In this document: one piece after another, positions 2,638 to 38,949 of the stretch
Numbering within the stretch: the first letter of the stretch is position 1
Layout of the letters: every line of letters starts with the position of its first letter
From: Escherichia coli
GTDB taxonomy: Bacteria > Pseudomonadota > Gammaproteobacteria > Enterobacterales > Enterobacteriaceae
Length of the DNA: 41,445 nt
NCBI RefSeq assembly: GCF_016903815.1
Contig: NZ_CP069975.1
Strand: one strand, 5' to 3'
Translations under genes and position numbers: made by a program
Notes under the pieces: model-generated
Told to the model about the DNA's origin: nothing
The model's input: only the letters and a program-made list of their open reading frames with translations
Database searches by the model: none

Positions 2638-3072
2638 TTATGCTGTAGTCGAGTTTATGGCCATAACTGCGGTATATGTTTTGCCCACATACAGCGAGTC
2701 TTCCTGGACACAAATAATGGCGATTGGCTTATTCTCGTTATCCAGAACAACCAGAGTGTTGAATGGGTAGTTTTTCCCTTCCTGCAACTGACTTTGATCA
2801 AGGTCCATTCGGACAGTAATTATCCCGCCTGAGTAGGTTGGGACGAGGTTGATGGTGCAAAATTGACTGGTCAGTTCTGCCAGATCGAAAGCCTTTGGCA
2901 GTTCTCCAATCTCATAAGTGCCATCTCCTTTCTTAGTAACCAGTGAACTGGTACCGAAAACGGCCTTGCTGATTAAAAATCGAGAGCCTTTGTTAATGGA
3001 CGATTCAGCGCGCCGCTGATAGTAATAGTCCAACAACTGACTCTTATAGAGGTTTGTTGAGACGTCAGACAT
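2638..3072 (-). CDS. Tail fibre-associated protein (P1 R-like by position)
   Basis: 144-aa ORF immediately upstream of S on the same strand; ATG 3072 preceded by AGGGA. Assignment by synteny only. Confidence 0.6.
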   Translation of the reverse strand: MSDVSTNLYKSQLLDYYYQRRAESSINKGSRFLISKAVFGTSSLVTKKGDGTYEIGELPKAFDLAELTSQFCTINLVPTYSGGIITVRMDLDQSQLQEGKNYPFNTLVVLDNENKPIAIICVQEDSLYVGKTYTAVMAINSTTA

Positions 3073-3102: not shown

Positions 3103-3147
3103 ATTGTAAGATAAGTAACTTGTCACCCCGCCCTGCGGACGGGGTGA
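3103..3147 (-). promoter_or_regulatory. Candidate late promoter (palindromic element + 6 bp + TACAAT) overlapping a GC hairpin, upstream of the R-S genes
   Basis: On the gene strand GTGACAAGTTAC (3126-3115), a 6-bp spacer, then TACAAT (3108-3103). Hairpin caccccg-N9-cggggtg at 3124-3147 immediately after the upstream gene stop. Same architecture recurs at 11666-11689, 23004-23028 and, more weakly, 30030-30054. Confidence 0.45.
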
Positions 3148-11067: not shown

Positions 11068-11689
<622 letters not shown>

Positions 11690-11692
11690 AGG

Positions 11693-12169
11693 TCATTTTG
11701 CGCGCTTCAGGCAGCCATCTTCAGGTGCCGCGTTGAAAAGCTCTGCGGCCTTACGTAGCGTAAATGTTGCGATTTTTTTTCCGTCTACGTATGCATCGAA
11801 TGTTTTAACTTCCATATCAGGGGTATCTGACCAAAAACCATACCAGTAACTATCACCCACAGAGGAACCGATAGAACTGATAGGATATTCATCATCACCA
11901 ACTTTCAGCGTTATTTGTTCTTTTTTAGCATCAAATGACTCACCGCCAGGTTCTGTTTTCATGAGAGTGAGTAGTCGTGTTCCTACTTGATTGGGATCCG
12001 TATTATTAAATCCAACATCGCACTCAAATGTAAGCGTATAATTATCTTTGCTGGAAACAGCATAAGAACGAACACCATGAGTCTCGCCGGTTGACCATTT
12101 GCTTACATTTGCCATTGATGAAAACGGAGTAAGCAAAGCAAGAACTAGTAAAAATCGTTTGATGCGCAT
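11693..12169 (-). CDS. Secreted protein with N-terminal signal peptide (sim-region gene)
   Basis: 158-aa ORF; N-terminus MRIKRFLLVLALLTPFSSMA is a typical Sec signal peptide. Confidence 0.6.
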   Translation of the reverse strand: MRIKRFLLVLALLTPFSSMANVSKWSTGETHGVRSYAVSSKDNYTLTFECDVGFNNTDPNQVGTRLLTLMKTEPGGESFDAKKEQITLKVGDDEYPISSIGSSVGDSYWYGFWSDTPDMEVKTFDAYVDGKKIATFTLRKAAELFNAAPEDGCLKRAK

Positions 12170-12220
12170 TAATTTATCTCCTTTGGATATTAATATTTTA
12201 ATTAGTTAACCACCATATAT

Positions 12221-12868
12221 TCACCATTCATAGGGTAAATTAAGCGCTTTTAAACCTTGCTGGAAAGTATTAAGAGATCCGTTTTTTTGTTGTTCCATTT
12301 TTTCGCGTGCAGCTTTCTCATACTGCTCCATCCGTTGGTTATACTCTTGCAATTCCTCCGGGGAGAGGTTTCCCATTGGGGAGTTTGTACCCGGCCCCCT
12401 GGCTCGTTCTTCAAGCGTACCCTGTACGTTTTGATGGCGCATTCCTGGGGCATTTCTTATTGAGTCAATGCCATTTCTTCCAACATCTTCTTTATTAACG
12501 GCATTGCTCGCCACCAGCACACCCCAGCTAGGGATAGCAAAATCAGGAGCGGTTTCGCATGCCTTTACCATATAATCGAAAGTGCTTCGATTGATCTCGT
12601 TTGCGTCGGGATTTAACAGGCTAGAATATTGATATTTAGCATTTTCGTTGGTTGCGACTTTATACAGTTCTTGCTGCACCATCGCTTCAGAAAGTTTAAG
12701 GCGTTTCATATCTGACAGTAACTTCTTGCGCATGGATTCGTCTTGACTGACAGCAAAGCCGTAAACGTGCCCAAGGTATTTCGTATAATCGGTACAAATC
12801 TCCTTTACGCTTGATGCTGCATTAACAGTCCCAGCCATAAATAATAACGGTAGTAATAGTTTTCTCAT
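12221..12868 (-). CDS. Sim-like superinfection-exclusion periplasmic protein (signal peptide; shares a segment with Sit)
   Basis: ORF track 12221..12895; start placed at ATG 12868 (GGTGAGG RBS) giving signal peptide MRKLLLPLLFMAGTVNAAS. Mature part contains NAPGMRHQNVQGTLEERARGPGT, matching Sit residues GRGMRREVVQGTLEERARGKGT. Location between the tube-region genes and the immI-like region matches P1 sim. Confidence 0.6.
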   Translation of the reverse strand: MRKLLLPLLFMAGTVNAASSVKEICTDYTKYLGHVYGFAVSQDESMRKKLLSDMKRLKLSEAMVQQELYKVATNENAKYQYSSLLNPDANEINRSTFDYMVKACETAPDFAIPSWGVLVASNAVNKEDVGRNGIDSIRNAPGMRHQNVQGTLEERARGPGTNSPMGNLSPEELQEYNQRMEQYEKAAREKMEQQKNGSLNTFQQGLKALNLPYEW

Positions 12869-12964
12869 TATAACCTCACCTGCCTTATAACTCATTTAGG
12901 GTACATATTTTCGCCTTTAAAAAAAAGAGGTTATTAGATCCAATTGTGTATTTATTAAGCATGC

Positions 12965-15540: not shown

Positions 15541-16386
15541 ATGCTGGCTAAAGTCACTTTCCTGAGCTGTATAACGATGAGCGATTTTACTTTTTCTGGC
15601 TATGAATTGGCCTGCTTTGTAACACACTCCGGTCTATCCCGTAGCACCTGGCATATCCTGTCGCAATGTGCAAATCTCGCGGCAACAACCAGTGAATACT
15701 TCATTCACAAGCCTCACCGCCTGATCGCGGCAGAAACTGGTTATAGCCAATCAACCGTCGTTCGTGCATTCCGTGAAGCTGTAAACAAAGGAATTCTGTC
15801 TGTAGAGATTGTTATCGGCGATCACCGTGAACGTCGCGCTAACCTGTACCGGTTTACGCCATCCTTTTTGGCCTTCGCACAACAAGCCAAAAATGCGCTG
15901 ATTGAAAGCAAATTAAAGATCTCTTCAGCGGCAACCAAGGTTAAAGCTGTTCTCGCTAAGACATTGGCTTTATTTAATTTTTTATCCACACCCCCATGTC
16001 AAAATGATACCCCCTCCCCCTGTCAGGATGACGTGGCAATAAAGAATAAGAAGTCACAAGTTAAAAAAACAAAAAGATCAGTTTCCGGCGGTGCCGGAAC
16101 GAGCAGACTCAAAAAATTGACTTCATGGATCGCTGAGGCAAAAGCAAAGGCTGACAATCTGCGGTTATCCAAAAAGCGCGCTCAAAAACATGAGTTCAAG
16201 CAGAAAGTAGAGGCGGCAGCGCGGAAATATGCTTACCTGAAGAACAAGCGTTCTCCTGATATTGGCGGGGTATCAAACTTCGATAATTTGCCGCATTGCA
16301 TGACGGTAAACGAAGCTCTTAATGCGGTTTTAGCCAAAAATAAAGATAACGAACAATGGGGTATACCGGCAGGATTCAGAGGGTGA
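15541..16386 (+). CDS. repL: RepL-like lytic replication initiator
   Basis: 281-aa ORF immediately after kilA under the same operator-controlled promoter, as in the P1 lytic replicon; basic C-terminal half. The alternative start at ATG 15577 cannot be excluded. Confidence 0.6.
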   Translation: MLAKVTFLSCITMSDFTFSGYELACFVTHSGLSRSTWHILSQCANLAATTSEYFIHKPHRLIAAETGYSQSTVVRAFREAVNKGILSVEIVIGDHRERRANLYRFTPSFLAFAQQAKNALIESKLKISSAATKVKAVLAKTLALFNFLSTPPCQNDTPSPCQDDVAIKNKKSQVKKTKRSVSGGAGTSRLKKLTSWIAEAKAKADNLRLSKKRAQKHEFKQKVEAAARKYAYLKNKRSPDIGGVSNFDNLPHCMTVNEALNAVLAKNKDNEQWGIPAGFRG

Positions 16387-21245: not shown

Positions 21246-22952
21246 TTACTCAGAGTCACCAGCATCAATCGTGTTACCGGTCAGGAAGTTAATTCCGCCA
21301 TTTTTTGCCATAGTCAGAGTTACACGGGTGAAGTAGTCAGCACCGTTGCGTGGATGCATATCGTTGATAGCCGAACCCCACAGAGTGGTTCGGTTGACTA
21401 GTGCCGGGGTGGTCGGATGCTGGAATGGGACAGCCGGGACTGCATCACCAGTTACGAAGCCCGCTTTGCCCGGATTTTCATCACGGACGTAGCACAGCAC
21501 ATCCATTGGGCTGAACTGGATACCGTCGGCGGTCAGGTTCGTACAAATACCTTCTGGTACTTCGAACACTTTGACGTTGCCGAACAGAGTGCCAATGTAG
21601 TGGACGTATGGGGTCTGGATGTAATCTTCTGCTGGCTGGAAGAAATCCTTCGGCAATTGTTTGAAGAAAGATGCCGCATCAGCACCGGCATACATCCCCA
21701 TCGCACCAGAAGATTTAACACGCTCAATAATACCGCGATATACCGTCTGGAATTTGCCTCGAATGATGGTTGCCCACACATCAAAGGTCTGGTTAGCTGG
21801 TAGTGCAATATCAAAGGAGTCGGTCGCAAGAGTTCGCCAAATCATGATACGAAGACGAAGCATATCTTGCTCATGGGACAGGTATTCCTTCAGGGTGCGG
21901 AACTGTAGGGAGCCAAGATCCAGACCAAATTCACGCTGTGCTTCATACGCCGCCTGTACCGTGTGCTCAGCCGCGATGACGAACTGGTTTGGGAACAGGG
22001 TGTAACTCTTCATTTCGTGGTTGATAAGTGGGATCAGCTCAGGAGCTGCTTCTATATTGATCTCCGCCTCAATGGCGATCTCAGTGCCTTTATCCGGCGC
22101 TTTGGAGAACGACAGGGCAATCTGACCAACGTTGTAATTCAAAGAGCAAGTAACAGTGATTTGTTCGCCTGCTTTGTTATTGAATGTGTGAAGCAGAGTA
22201 CCGGAGCCGTTATCAACAACAGACTTAATACGGTTAACGTAGATGTTTGTGCGACCTTTGCGAATCGGGACATTCTGACCTTCGACATCTTCCATCTTGA
22301 AGGTTGCAGTTTTGCTGGTGCCGTCGGAGCTTGCAACCAGCACATAGCGGCGGCGCAACTGGCTGTACACGCCAACGGATTGCATGTCCAGAACATCACC
22401 AATAGCATAGGAGCCAAAAGAAGAACCCGCTACGTTAAAGATTTCATAGATTTCGGACTTGTCACGCGTAACCGGAATGAATGTACACGCATCAGCGGTA
22501 GCTGCCCCCAACTGAACAGGCAGGATCATCGCCAAGAATAAAGGCAGACGCATAACCCCGTCAGAAACACTCATCATCTCTGCCGCGACTGATTCCAGCA
22601 TCGCTTTATTGGTGGCGTCCATGCTATTGCGGGTGGACTCAATCAGGCAGTTTTCCAGCGTCTGATGGCAGGAGGCCAGAATTTCCGGACGTGGCATAGA
22701 TTTATGTGTTGCGGCGTAGTCAGCCAGTGCACTTGCCCACGCTGTAGCGATTTGAGCGGTGGCATTATCAGAGATACCCGCAAAAATTGGGTCTTTACGT
22801 GCAGCTTCAAGGATAGATGCGGCACGCGCGGCATCATCTTTAATGAATTGGTTATCAGTACCGAACTGCGCAGTGCTTGCCCAGCCAAGCACAGCTTTAG
22901 AGCGTTTTGCGATATCTGCAATACGATTCTGGTATTCGCGTAAGTTACTCAA
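21246..22952 (-). CDS. Major head (capsid) protein (P1 gene 23-like by size and position)
   Basis: ORF track 21246..22973 starts at TTG; I place the start at in-frame TTG 22952 preceded by AAGGAAGAG (no in-frame ATG nearby). First gene after the candidate late promoter 23004-23028. Confidence 0.55.
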   Translation of the reverse strand: MSNLREYQNRIADIAKRSKAVLGWASTAQFGTDNQFIKDDAARAASILEAARKDPIFAGISDNATAQIATAWASALADYAATHKSMPRPEILASCHQTLENCLIESTRNSMDATNKAMLESVAAEMMSVSDGVMRLPLFLAMILPVQLGAATADACTFIPVTRDKSEIYEIFNVAGSSFGSYAIGDVLDMQSVGVYSQLRRRYVLVASSDGTSKTATFKMEDVEGQNVPIRKGRTNIYVNRIKSVVDNGSGTLLHTFNNKAGEQITVTCSLNYNVGQIALSFSKAPDKGTEIAIEAEINIEAAPELIPLINHEMKSYTLFPNQFVIAAEHTVQAAYEAQREFGLDLGSLQFRTLKEYLSHEQDMLRLRIMIWRTLATDSFDIALPANQTFDVWATIIRGKFQTVYRGIIERVKSSGAMGMYAGADAASFFKQLPKDFFQPAEDYIQTPYVHYIGTLFGNVKVFEVPEGICTNLTADGIQFSPMDVLCYVRDENPGKAGFVTGDAVPAVPFQHPTTPALVNRTTLWGSAINDMHPRNGADYFTRVTLTMAKNGGINFLTGNTIDAGDSE

Positions 22953-23003
22953 TTTACTCTTCCTTAAACACAAGGCACTTGTGTGAATCCCTTTTCGGAA
23001 GAG

Positions 23004-23028
23004 ATTTTATTGAAAGTCACTTGTTGAC
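23004..23028 (-). promoter_or_regulatory. Candidate late promoter of the head/sheath operon
   Basis: Gene strand: GTCAACAAGTGAC (23028-23016), 6 bp, TAAAAT (23009-23004); about 50 nt upstream of the gene 23 start. Confidence 0.45.
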
Positions 23029-23084
23029 TTTCTCGTGACAAGCAATTTTTTTATTTTTTTTCGGGAGTAGGGGAGGAAGGTAAA

Positions 23085-23178
23085 ATCCAAGGTGAAATCG
23101 TGGCGATTTCACCTTGAAATTTTAGAGTGATTTACTTTAAAAACAGTAGTTTAATAGTGAAATTTGAATGGCGAAAGT
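23085..23178. promoter_or_regulatory. parS: parS-like partition site (ParB heptamer/hexamer boxes flanking an AT-rich, IHF-like core)
   Basis: GTGAAATCGTGGCGATTTCAC (23091-23111) and TAGTGAAATTTGAATGGCGAAAG (23155-23177) carry ATTTCAC-type heptamers and TCGCCA hexamers (as TGGCGA), separated by AT-rich DNA; immediately downstream of the parB stop. Confidence 0.65.
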
Positions 23179-24180
23179 TTAAGGCTTCGGCTTTTTATCG
23201 AGGCTCTTTCTAAGGATATGCCCAATCATCCTGTCGAGTTCTTCCTGTAGCTCTTTTGAAAGTCGATTAAACTCATAAGAAAATGCACGGCCTTTCACGC
23301 GCTTCCTTGCAAAGCGATCCTTGTCCTCAAATTTCCATAATTCAGTAACTACGGACTTATCTTTAGAACCTTTATCCGTGAGTAGTGAGGCTTCCTTTGT
23401 TATCAAGCGCAGGATTTTATTTTTAACTTCATCTTCGGCCATTTCTTCAATGGATAAGATGTCGTTTATTTCCGGGGATATGTTTTGAATAAGCTGATCA
23501 AACTCTAAATTCTTGTTCCCCATTTCGTCGCCAACAGCACAAAGCGTTTTGTAGTCCGAAAAGGTTAATTCCGACTGCACAGGGAAAAGGGCGACTAATT
23601 CTTCCGGAGCACTCGCTGCCTGGAGAGCACGCGTGACCTTCGCCTGAGACAGCCCTTCTTTGGCTGCAATATCCTTCTGACTCATCCCATCATTTTTCAT
23701 TCGCATCAAACGCAGACCTATTTCTCGAATGCTGTGCTGCAATGCTGTCTGAACGTCTTTCGCTAAATTTTGCGCTTCCTGAACGCTGATCTCCTGGTCC
23801 GTGACTAAAACCCGCAACCCTACGTTCTCTAAGATGGCAGAAGCTCGACGCCGGGAACCATCCAAAATTTCAATTTTCCCTGTAGCCCGTCTAACACCTA
23901 TTGCAGGGTAAAATTGCTGATGCTTAATAGTGCTTCGGATACTTTTTAATGATTTTGGCGTAAGAGATGCCTGGTCACGCCCGTTGTTATGCTGATCAAC
24001 AAAGGTATCGCTTTCTACCTGGTTCGGAGGTATTACCTCTTCAATAAATGTGGCCTGGCGACCAGTTGATAACTTGAATACCTGCTCGACTCGATCGCCA
24101 GAGGCTGAAGAACTATCAAATCCGCTTAATATTGAAGGATTAAGGGTTCGCCCAATTGTTGGTCTGTTTTTCTTTGACAT
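23179..24180 (-). CDS. parB: Partition protein ParB (centromere-binding)
   Basis: 333-aa ORF downstream of parA with a 16-nt gap; followed by the parS-like site. Confidence 0.85.
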   Translation of the reverse strand: MSKKNRPTIGRTLNPSILSGFDSSSASGDRVEQVFKLSTGRQATFIEEVIPPNQVESDTFVDQHNNGRDQASLTPKSLKSIRSTIKHQQFYPAIGVRRATGKIEILDGSRRRASAILENVGLRVLVTDQEISVQEAQNLAKDVQTALQHSIREIGLRLMRMKNDGMSQKDIAAKEGLSQAKVTRALQAASAPEELVALFPVQSELTFSDYKTLCAVGDEMGNKNLEFDQLIQNISPEINDILSIEEMAEDEVKNKILRLITKEASLLTDKGSKDKSVVTELWKFEDKDRFARKRVKGRAFSYEFNRLSKELQEELDRMIGHILRKSLDKKPKP

Positions 24181-37951: not shown

Positions 37952-38949
37952 TGCAATGGAATGAGGAAAAGCCGATGAACATCCTGATCATTGGGCGAAA
38001 ATTTGAAGCCATCAGTGATGTGAAAACATATACGGAAATGTGGGCTTATAACCTGGCATGCGCCTTTAGTGAGGCAGGGGTAACATTGCAATACCATCGT
38101 CCATATTCCCCTGGCGTCGAAAGCCCCGAGGATTATGTTGAAGCTGTGTTGACTGCTGCGACCGCATGTTCTGCGAAGGCCATTTTGGCACCAGGATTGA
38201 GGTATTTTACTACGGTACCCAGGGAAATAGGCATGCAACTGTGTCGCCGATTCTCTGGATGGGTAGCCCAGGTATATGACGGTTCTATGCTGGATTCGGC
38301 ACCAGTCGATATTACTTTTACTGTCCGCGATGATACCTGGCGGTACCTGGATAATCCCGGTCGGTTAGAGCGTCATAATCGCTTTAACAAACATGTTGGA
38401 TGGGCAGCGAATCAGGAACTGTTCCATCTGGAAACCAAAACAGACGATGTTCTGCGTATTTTTGTAGACCACGCTGCATTTGATGTTAGTGGGTTTGATC
38501 ACTCCTTAAGTATCCTTATGAACCTTCAGCGCCTGGCCGTTCCGTATGAGGCCAGAACGTTGACCGATGACGGATTGATTACCATTGATCCGGGGAATAT
38601 ATCGGTAACCCCATACAGACGGACTCCGGTACCAGCAACCGAATTTGCAGCTGAATTGCGTAAGAGTGACGTTTTTATTGTTACGCATCCCGAAAGCCTT
38701 GGATTAACTGTTCTTGAGGCGGCAATGTGTGGGGCGTTGATATTAACGCCGCCCGATTGTCTTCCGCCGGATCGCCTGGCTTTGGTGAACCATATGGTTA
38801 TCAAGTCGCGGATTGATTGGGATGAGGTTATTGCTCGCGTTGATCGCGTGAAAAATGCTGAAAAGGTCCAGTGTCACACCTGGTCGGCAATCGCGGAAAA
38901 GATGCTTGATACGTTTATCACCCAGAAACCGTCGCGAGGTAACGGATAA
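37951..38949 (+). CDS. GT-B glycosyltransferase-like protein (P1 Dbn position), translationally coupled to ban
   Basis: ATG overlaps the ban stop (TAATG); alternative start ATG 37975. C-terminal SDVFIVTHPESLGLTVLEAAMCGALILTP resembles the GT1/GT4 E-x7-E/EAMA motif. Confidence 0.55.
   Translation: MQWNEEKPMNILIIGRKFEAISDVKTYTEMWAYNLACAFSEAGVTLQYHRPYSPGVESPEDYVEAVLTAATACSAKAILAPGLRYFTTVPREIGMQLCRRFSGWVAQVYDGSMLDSAPVDITFTVRDDTWRYLDNPGRLERHNRFNKHVGWAANQELFHLETKTDDVLRIFVDHAAFDVSGFDHSLSILMNLQRLAVPYEARTLTDDGLITIDPGNISVTPYRRTPVPATEFAAELRKSDVFIVTHPESLGLTVLEAAMCGALILTPPDCLPPDRLALVNHMVIKSRIDWDEVIARVDRVKNAEKVQCHTWSAIAEKMLDTFITQKPSRGNG

Follow-up and report, generated by a model that had tools for sequence, protein, structure and literature searches.

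Late promoters in a P1-type phage genome segment: three known sites, two candidate additions and an apparently asymmetric recognition element

Analysis of a 41,445-nucleotide stretch of an Escherichia coli assembly (contig NZ_CP069975.1; the whole stretch is referred to here as the window) identified three minus-strand sites that, from sequence comparison, are very probably the P1-type late promoters LPs, LPsit and LP23 (probability about 0.9). These sites are already known and annotated in the reference genome, and what is new here is limited to two candidate members of the set and a sharper consensus. Taken jointly, the comparisons lean slightly towards the existence of at least two Lpa-type late promoters beyond the curated 11, one serving upfC-upfB and one serving ppfA/mlp, together with a promoter element that is an asymmetric 11-mer, AC plus AAGTGACTT, and not a symmetric 9-bp palindrome.

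Results

Three sites coincide with annotated P1 late promoters

The window is ~98% identical to phage P1, and the stretch from 22500 to 23500 shows 97.9% identity to P1 (AF234172 / NC_005856) and 99.9% to Escherichia phage vB_EcoM-673R5. Judged by these identities, the window is a segment of a P1-type (Punavirus) phage or phage-plasmid genome. The P1 record annotates 11 late promoters (LPmat, LPpro, LPlyz, LPdar, LPs, LPsit, LP23, LP26, LPpmgL, LPhot and LPpac), and in each entry a 9-bp "-22 region" is separated from the -10 hexamer by 4 bp, or by 9 bp for LPhot. LPs, LPsit and LP23 are the only late promoters annotated within the part of P1 covered by the window; LP23 carries the label "predicted late promoter LP23", while LPs and LPsit stand without "predicted". 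The P1 promoters LPs (Ps), LPsit and LP23 were reportedly described by Guidolin in 1989, by Lehnherr in 1991/1992 and in the Lobocka annotation of 2004.

The first-pass annotation had described one arrangement, a 12-13 bp palindrome separated by 6 bp from a -10 hexamer, in front of four operons, and had likened it to Lpa-dependent P1 late promoters with a repeat near -22. Its strings and coordinates are exact: on the minus strand, 3126..3103 reads GTGACAAGTTAC-TTATCT-TACAAT, 11689..11666 reads GTCACAAATGAC-TACTCG-TAGAAT, 23028..23004 reads GTCAACAAGTGAC-TTTCAA-TAAAAT, and the degenerate fourth string, 30054..30030, reads GACCACAAATAAC-CTAAGT-TAAAAT. The 6-bp spacing is also correct, and corresponds to the last two bases of the box plus the canonical 4-bp spacer. 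The likeness to P1 was well drawn, as the orthologous positions in AF234172 are annotated as LPs, LPsit and LP23. That four operons share the arrangement holds for these three annotated late promoters; the fourth site (site 4 in Table 1) lies outside the curated set and its motif match is non-significant, although the evidence overall favors it.

Table 1 Promoters, candidate promoters and an adjoining structure. Coordinates are window positions.
Feature	Position	Strand	AC	9-bp box	Spacer	-10 hexamer	Downstream genes	Remarks
LPs (former Ps)	3103..3123	minus	3123-3122	AAGTTACTT, 3121-3113	ATCT	TACAAT, 3108-3103	tail-fibre operon R-S-U	R ATG start at 3072
LPsit	11666..11686	minus	11686-11685	AAATGACTA, 11684-11676	CTCG	TAGAAT, 11671-11666	operon pmgC-tub-pmgB-sit-pmgA-bplA-16	pmgC ATG start at 11634
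LP23	23004..23024	minus	23024-23023	AAGTGACTT, 23022-23014	TCAA, 23013-23010	TAAAAT, 23009-23004	head/sheath operon 23-22-21-pmgG-bplB-pmgF	expected start ~22998-22996; gene 23 TTG start at 22952
Site 4, candidate late promoter, unannotated	30030..30050	minus	30050-30049	AAATAACCT, 30048-30040	AAGT	TAAAAT, 30035-30030	upfC (PAAR spike tip) and upfB	upfC GTG start at 29997, 32 nt downstream
Site 4 orthologue, JK004			AC	GAATAACAA	GGGG	TAGCAT		
Site 4 orthologue, Salmonella plasmids			AC	TAATGACAA	GACT	TACAAT		
ppfA-junction site, candidate late promoter	28896..28916	minus	AC	AAAGGACTT, 28914-28906	CATT	GATAAT, 28901-28896	ppfA	in the 40-nt gap between upfB and ppfA; ppfA ATG start at 28876, 19 nt downstream
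Stem-loop	3123..3147	minus						11-bp, GC-rich, between gene 16 and LPs; -21 kcal/mol, z = -3.1

The boxes at LPs, LPsit and LP23 (AAGTTACTT, AAATGACTA and AAGTGACTT) are each identical to the "-22 region" annotated in AF234172 and are followed by 4 bp and the hexamer, and alignment with all 11 annotated P1 late promoters shows that the core sequences at these sites are identical to those of P1. Over the core of 19-21 bp the match is exact or nearly so, the same operons lie downstream, and the architecture is shared (9-bp -22 box, 4 bp, -10, no -35). The one difference is at LPsit, where the upstream DNA is a different cassette from the P1 simC region. All four hexamers in the window, including that of site 4, have the form TANNNT. 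The absence of a -35 element noted in the first-pass annotation was borne out, with the best TTGACA match at 16-18 bp spacing reaching at most 3/6 at all four sites, and none of the four has a TG extended -10. Each site is co-oriented with its operon and located 30-51 nt upstream of the first gene (R, pmgC, gene 23 or upfC), with hexamer-to-start-codon gaps of 30 nt at LPs, 31 nt at LPsit and 32 nt at site 4. In published P1vir RNA-seq (PMC8201110), all these operons, including upfC-upfA, follow late kinetics, and genes behind annotated late promoters are near silent at 10 min and ~100-fold up by 30 min.

The three known sites stand out statistically

In order to avoid circularity, a first position weight matrix (PWM; unmasked, 24 nt) was trained on seven standard-spacing P1 late promoters outside the region homologous to the window. 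In this search of the window, LP23 is the top match and LPs and LPsit take ranks 2-3 among ~83,000 positions on both strands (25.9, 18.2 and 17.6 bits), far above shuffles: the third-best match in 200 Markov shuffles reached at most 12.8 bits. A larger PWM from 15 independent training sites, the seven above together with the JK004 orthologues of eight annotated P1 promoters, scored the three known sites at 27.3, 21.9 and 21.4 bits. The exact pattern ACAARTNACNWNNNNTANNNT, which was chosen post hoc, gave 4 matches against 0.02 expected. The recurrence of the first three sites is far beyond chance. Accepted promoters themselves score widely, from -4.6 to 24 bits under leave-one-out.

The sites fit activation by Lpa with SspA

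According to earlier reports, expression of the P1 late genes depends on two proteins: phage-encoded Lpa, whose conserved target sequence is centred at -22, and SspA, a co-activator supplied by the host (PMC3152322 citing Hansen et al. 2003; PMC8201110). In all 11 late promoters, Lpa is taken to bind the 9-bp inverted repeat, and the lpa gene is essential (PMC10695390). SspA makes its contacts with the beta' zinc-binding domain and with region 4 of sigma-70, not with DNA (PMC7515715). The lpa gene (gene 10) is located outside the window; ON470615.2, which at 99.9% identity to the window is its closest complete genome, has an Lpa that matches that of P1 at 100% identity. The protein forms its own family, PF25716, and searches found no solved structure of Lpa and, in the literature examined, no dataset mapping P1 transcription starts or 5′ ends. 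Cronobacter phage JK004 and a Salmonella plasmid, whose Lpa proteins are 67% and 72% identical, respectively, carry the same motif before the orthologous late operons.

An Lpa-type explanation for the three sites, at the same level of about 0.9, would run as follows. After induction, an early promoter under C1 repression, located outside the window, would supply Lpa, which would recognize the AC-AAGTNACTT box, centred near -22 with 4 bp between it and the -10. Together with host SspA associated with RNA polymerase, Lpa would allow the sigma-70 holoenzyme to initiate ~6-8 nt past the hexamer. Bound at the -22 box and acting via SspA, Lpa would stand in for the -35 contact that is missing, and the -10 hexamer would be read by sigma-70 region 2. 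The predicted outcome is that the tail-fibre, tail/baseplate and head/sheath operons are switched on late in infection.

It is extremely unlikely that the three strong sites lack a dedicated activator and are instead constitutive sigma-70 promoters of the ordinary kind, or matches arising by chance. Their -10 hexamers are good and the P1 record lists an overlapping "predicted sigma 70 promoter P1 23", but that prediction has a 21-bp spacer, and the sites have neither a -35 nor an extended -10. The PWM scores far above shuffles, the box kept in three lineages that each encode an Lpa homologue, the near silence of the downstream genes at 10 min before their ~100-fold rise, and the essentiality of lpa (PMC10695390) likewise argue against constitutive expression or chance.

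The conserved element is asymmetric

An alignment of 19 late promoters (the 11 of P1 and 8 orthologues from JK004) places high information at the upstream AC, at the nine box positions AAGTGACTT, and, in the hexamer, at T1, A2 and T6. The AC just 5′ of the box has its A in 18/19 and its C in 16/19 promoters, while information is ~0 in the 4-bp spacer and at the would-be symmetric partners of the upstream AC. Because information is high at the AC and the box and ~0 at those partner positions, the conserved element, as defined by this alignment, is an asymmetric 11-mer, AC plus AAGTNACTT, followed by 4 uninformative bases and TANNNT. Within the box, position 5 is A in none of the 19 promoters and position 8 is C in only one; a non-T base at hexamer position 1 occurs in the annotated LPmat, LPpmgL and LPhot, as it does at the ppfA-junction site. 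The other eight P1 late promoters and the JK004 and Salmonella phage-plasmid orthologues share the consensus AC AAGTGACTT N4 TANNNT.

The 12-13 bp palindrome of the first-pass annotation was mis-framed. Each of its strings pairs at 4/6 positions, and its register changes between 12 and 13 bp from site to site. At LPsit, homology between the window and P1 starts exactly at the AC, so the GTC of the earlier left arm sits in P1-unrelated DNA, and P1 has TGAAC where the window has GTCAC. At LPs, the GTGA of that arm is the 3′ arm of an 11-bp hairpin. The left palindrome arm is incidental.

A functional element consisting of a symmetric 12-13 bp palindrome (GTSAC-AA-GTNAC), symmetrically bound, in place of the canonical 9-bp box is accordingly hard to sustain and we consider it very unlikely. 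The 4/6 complementary pairs recur at each of the three window sites, and LP23 orthologues keep GTCAAC even in diverged genomes. Across the 19 promoters, however, conservation in the earlier left arm is confined to the AC at -2/-1, its remaining positions (-5 to -3) carry just 0.25-0.65 bits, and pairing of the kind read in the first pass amounts to 0-4/5 with a median of ~2. The divergent arm of P1's own LPsit, the hairpin origin of the GTGA at LPs and the shifting register also speak against a palindrome. The asymmetric 11-mer, if true, bears on how Lpa, as a monomer or a dimer, sits between the -35 and -10 positions.

The stem-loop at LPs (Table 1) lies outside the promoter proper and is the source of the GTGA in the earlier left arm. 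It directly follows gene 16, adjoins the LPs -22 box and has no clean U-run; it may be a 3′-end or terminator-like structure for the sit-16 operon.

Outside the window, LP26 and LPpmgL (P1 78495-78503) are annotated as sharing one -22 box in opposite directions. This is the sole place where the two-fold symmetry of the box is actually used, and in the LPpmgL orientation the upstream AC becomes GC. Within the window, a perfect box AAGTGACTT with a poor hexamer, CAGCAT, lies on the minus strand at 15541-15561, at the kilA/repL junction and antisense to kilA. This box is probably a chance occurrence, as the window holds six exact AAGTNACTT boxes and only two of them fall in known promoters.

LP23 is conserved between unrelated flanks, and LPsit marks a mosaic boundary

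In scans of viral contigs, the LP23 24-mer TCAACAAGTGACTTTCAATAAAAT is essentially invariant among 51 distinct upstream variants (80 viral contigs), a set made up mostly of relatives with at least 88% identity and informative for within-lineage variation only. Two diverged genomes, with capsid proteins 81% and 76% identical, have unrelated DNA upstream of LP23, and one of them is without parS; in both, homology resumes at LP23, as GTCAAC-A..T.ACTTTC.A-TAAAAT. The promoter is kept between unrelated flanks in the genomes L075, L077, JK004 and the Salmonella plasmid, and its orthologue is the best or second-best genome-wide match in JK004 and in the Salmonella phage-plasmid. Genes 23-22-21 and the remaining operon follow late kinetics in the published P1vir RNA-seq. 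LP23, which is merely "predicted" in the reference record, thereby gains independent comparative support. An inverted repeat in the gene 23 leader (22968-22984) was dropped, as its stability equals that of shuffles (z = -0.24).

At LPsit, P1 homology ends exactly at the AC (window 11687-12200, minus strand, compared with P1 46627-47580). Upstream, ORFs at 11693-12169 and 12221-12895 form a different cassette in place of the P1 simC region. Therefore, LPsit marks a recombination or mosaic boundary.

A fourth site precedes the upfC-upfB operon

Neither P1 (AF234172) nor the curated P7 record annotates a promoter upstream of upfC. The genes behind site 4 encode virion and lysis functions: UpfC (PAAR spike tip) and UpfB (tripod), both parts of the baseplate, have been seen in the virion by cryo-EM (PMC12810830), and PpfA and Mlp of the same operon match Rz/Rz1-like spanin families. 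In the P1vir RNA-seq, the five-gene operon upfC-upfB-ppfA-mlp-upfA has a 10-min log fold-change of 4.8 and a rise to 30 min of 6.2, compared with 4.2 and a rise of 6.8 for late-promoter genes and 8.0 and a rise of 3.2 for early/plasmid genes (Mann-Whitney p ~1e-5, where genes of one operon are not independent). A scan of 29900-30300 found no sigma-70-type promoter in the 170-bp upfC-uhr gap.

The motif score of site 4 depends on the matrix. With the first PWM (7 training sites), the site ranks 9 with 7.1 bits, which is chance level, partly because the tiny training set penalized the uninformative centre and spacer positions. With masked or larger PWMs, it ranks 4 with 13.4-14.8 bits, a score for which 0.3-0.5 matches per window are expected by chance. 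As site 4 is not significant window-wide on motif, it is not claimed on motif score. Its score nevertheless falls within the leave-one-out range of real promoters, and the JK004 orthologue of a proven promoter, LPdar, scores as low as 7.9 bits. The box AAATAACCT agrees with AAGTNACTT at 6/8 specified positions; LPsit and LP26 likewise have A at position 3, and the deviations fall at positions 5 (A) and 8 (C), which are A and C, respectively, in none and one of the 19 aligned promoters.

The register of site 4 is kept without indels in three lineages (Table 1), while its flanks have diverged with indels. The ten columns invariant among the three lineages are the informative motif positions (mean 1.37 vs 0.57 bits, p = 0.003), and nine of the ten hold the consensus base. 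Among 47 distinct variants of the gap, CCACAA, AAC, T and TTAAAATAA are invariant at site 4, and some variants come near the consensus (AAGTAACCT, AAATAACTT). A scan of genome contigs with UpfB yielded only 3 close relatives. On the evidence as a whole, site 4 is rather likely to be an additional weak Lpa-type late promoter serving upfC-upfB.

Upstream of site 4 stands a conserved C1 operator, an Odmt homologue at ~30079-30095. The ~28 bp between this operator and site 4 (30051-30078, minus strand) are hypervariable among the 47 otherwise near-identical P1-like genomes.

A second candidate lies in front of the spanin genes

The ppfA-junction site ranks 5 in the window with 10.9 bits under the 15-site PWM, where 1.9 such matches are expected by chance. 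Its JK004 orthologue reads AC AAATGACCT GGCG GAAAAT (14.1 bits), and that of the Salmonella plasmid reads AC ATATGACTT GTCA GAAAAT (17.2 bits, rank 5 genome-wide). Across lineages, the register and the informative bases of the box and hexamer are kept, while the spacer varies. At this junction, the P1 record lists only a different element, "predicted sigma 70 P1ppfA". The site is probably the late promoter of the spanin genes. Site 4 and the ppfA-junction site (AAAGGACTT, GATAAT) are both more degenerate than most late promoters and resemble the weakest accepted ones, namely the LPdar orthologues and LPpmgL.

A doubtful but serious alternative is that neither candidate is an Lpa-type promoter and that their conservation reflects something else, such as a weak, activator-independent -10-only promoter whose output rises late with genome copy number, the binding site of another factor, or leader and RBS constraints. 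Consistent with this are motif scores at chance level window-wide (0.5 and 1.9 expected; rank 9 for site 4 under the first PWM), a box that departs from consensus at positions near-invariant elsewhere, the lack of both sites in the curated P1 and P7 annotation, and the overlap of the junction-site AC with the upfB stop codon. Against it, the kinetics of the operon are those of late-promoter genes and unlike those of early/plasmid genes (10-min log fold-change 4.8 vs 8.0; rise 6.2 vs 3.2). Copy number alone would raise early genes equally, and the late rise of the operon therefore counts against a copy-number effect. The intergenic region has no sigma-70 -35/-10 match, and in three lineages the spacer and flanks vary while the register and precisely the informative positions are retained. 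Low scores also have a parallel in orthologues of proven promoters (JK004 LPdar, 7.9 bits; leave-one-out range -4.6 to 24).

Discussion

Three of the four sites noted in the first pass matter little by themselves, being textbook P1 late promoters correctly recognized from raw sequence. The added value lies in the corrected box boundaries, which describe an asymmetric AC plus 9-bp box with a 4-bp spacer and no extended palindrome, and in the upfC-upfB-ppfA-mlp-upfA operon, a late-expressed set of virion and lysis genes with no curated late promoter and two conserved late-promoter-like sites. If both candidates are true promoters, the P1 transcription map of 11 late promoters needs two additions. 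Outside the window, darB, simB and simC of P1 also show late-type kinetics (rise 6.1-6.8 in the P1vir RNA-seq), and the promoters annotated for them in P1 are sigma-70 only.

Positive control of late genes through the host core RNA polymerase is shared with the Mu C, P2/P4 Ogr/Delta and T4 gp55/gp33 systems, whose late promoters are likewise weak or without a -35. The systems differ in where and how the activator acts. Mu C binds from -30 to -55, whereas in P1 the box is found at -22, in the interval from -35 to -10, and host SspA is required. P2 Ogr sites lie near -55. T4, unlike P1, relies on a sigma factor of its own and on a TATAAATA motif. In the Francisella MglA-SspA-PigR system, an SspA-family protein on the RNA polymerase/sigma-70 holoenzyme serves as a docking surface for a promoter-specific activator. 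We infer an analogy between this mode of activation and that of Lpa; the activator protein and the DNA element are different.

D6 and D6-like phage-plasmids have a P1-syntenic genome with an Lpa homologue beside pacA, but the Lpa of the D6-like phage-plasmid is only 31% identical to that of P1, and no P1-type box was found upstream of late operons in the D6-like pLD93-1-90kb. The Lpa recognition sequence has evidently diverged in the D6-like lineage, and pLD93-1-90kb was rejected as a distant footprinting partner on account of its 31% identical Lpa and missing P1 box. In the D6-like plasmid NZ_CP047663.1, several copies of a TTTGAGAAT-like motif lie upstream of the PAAR gene (38046-38311), and these repeats may be that lineage's own regulatory element.
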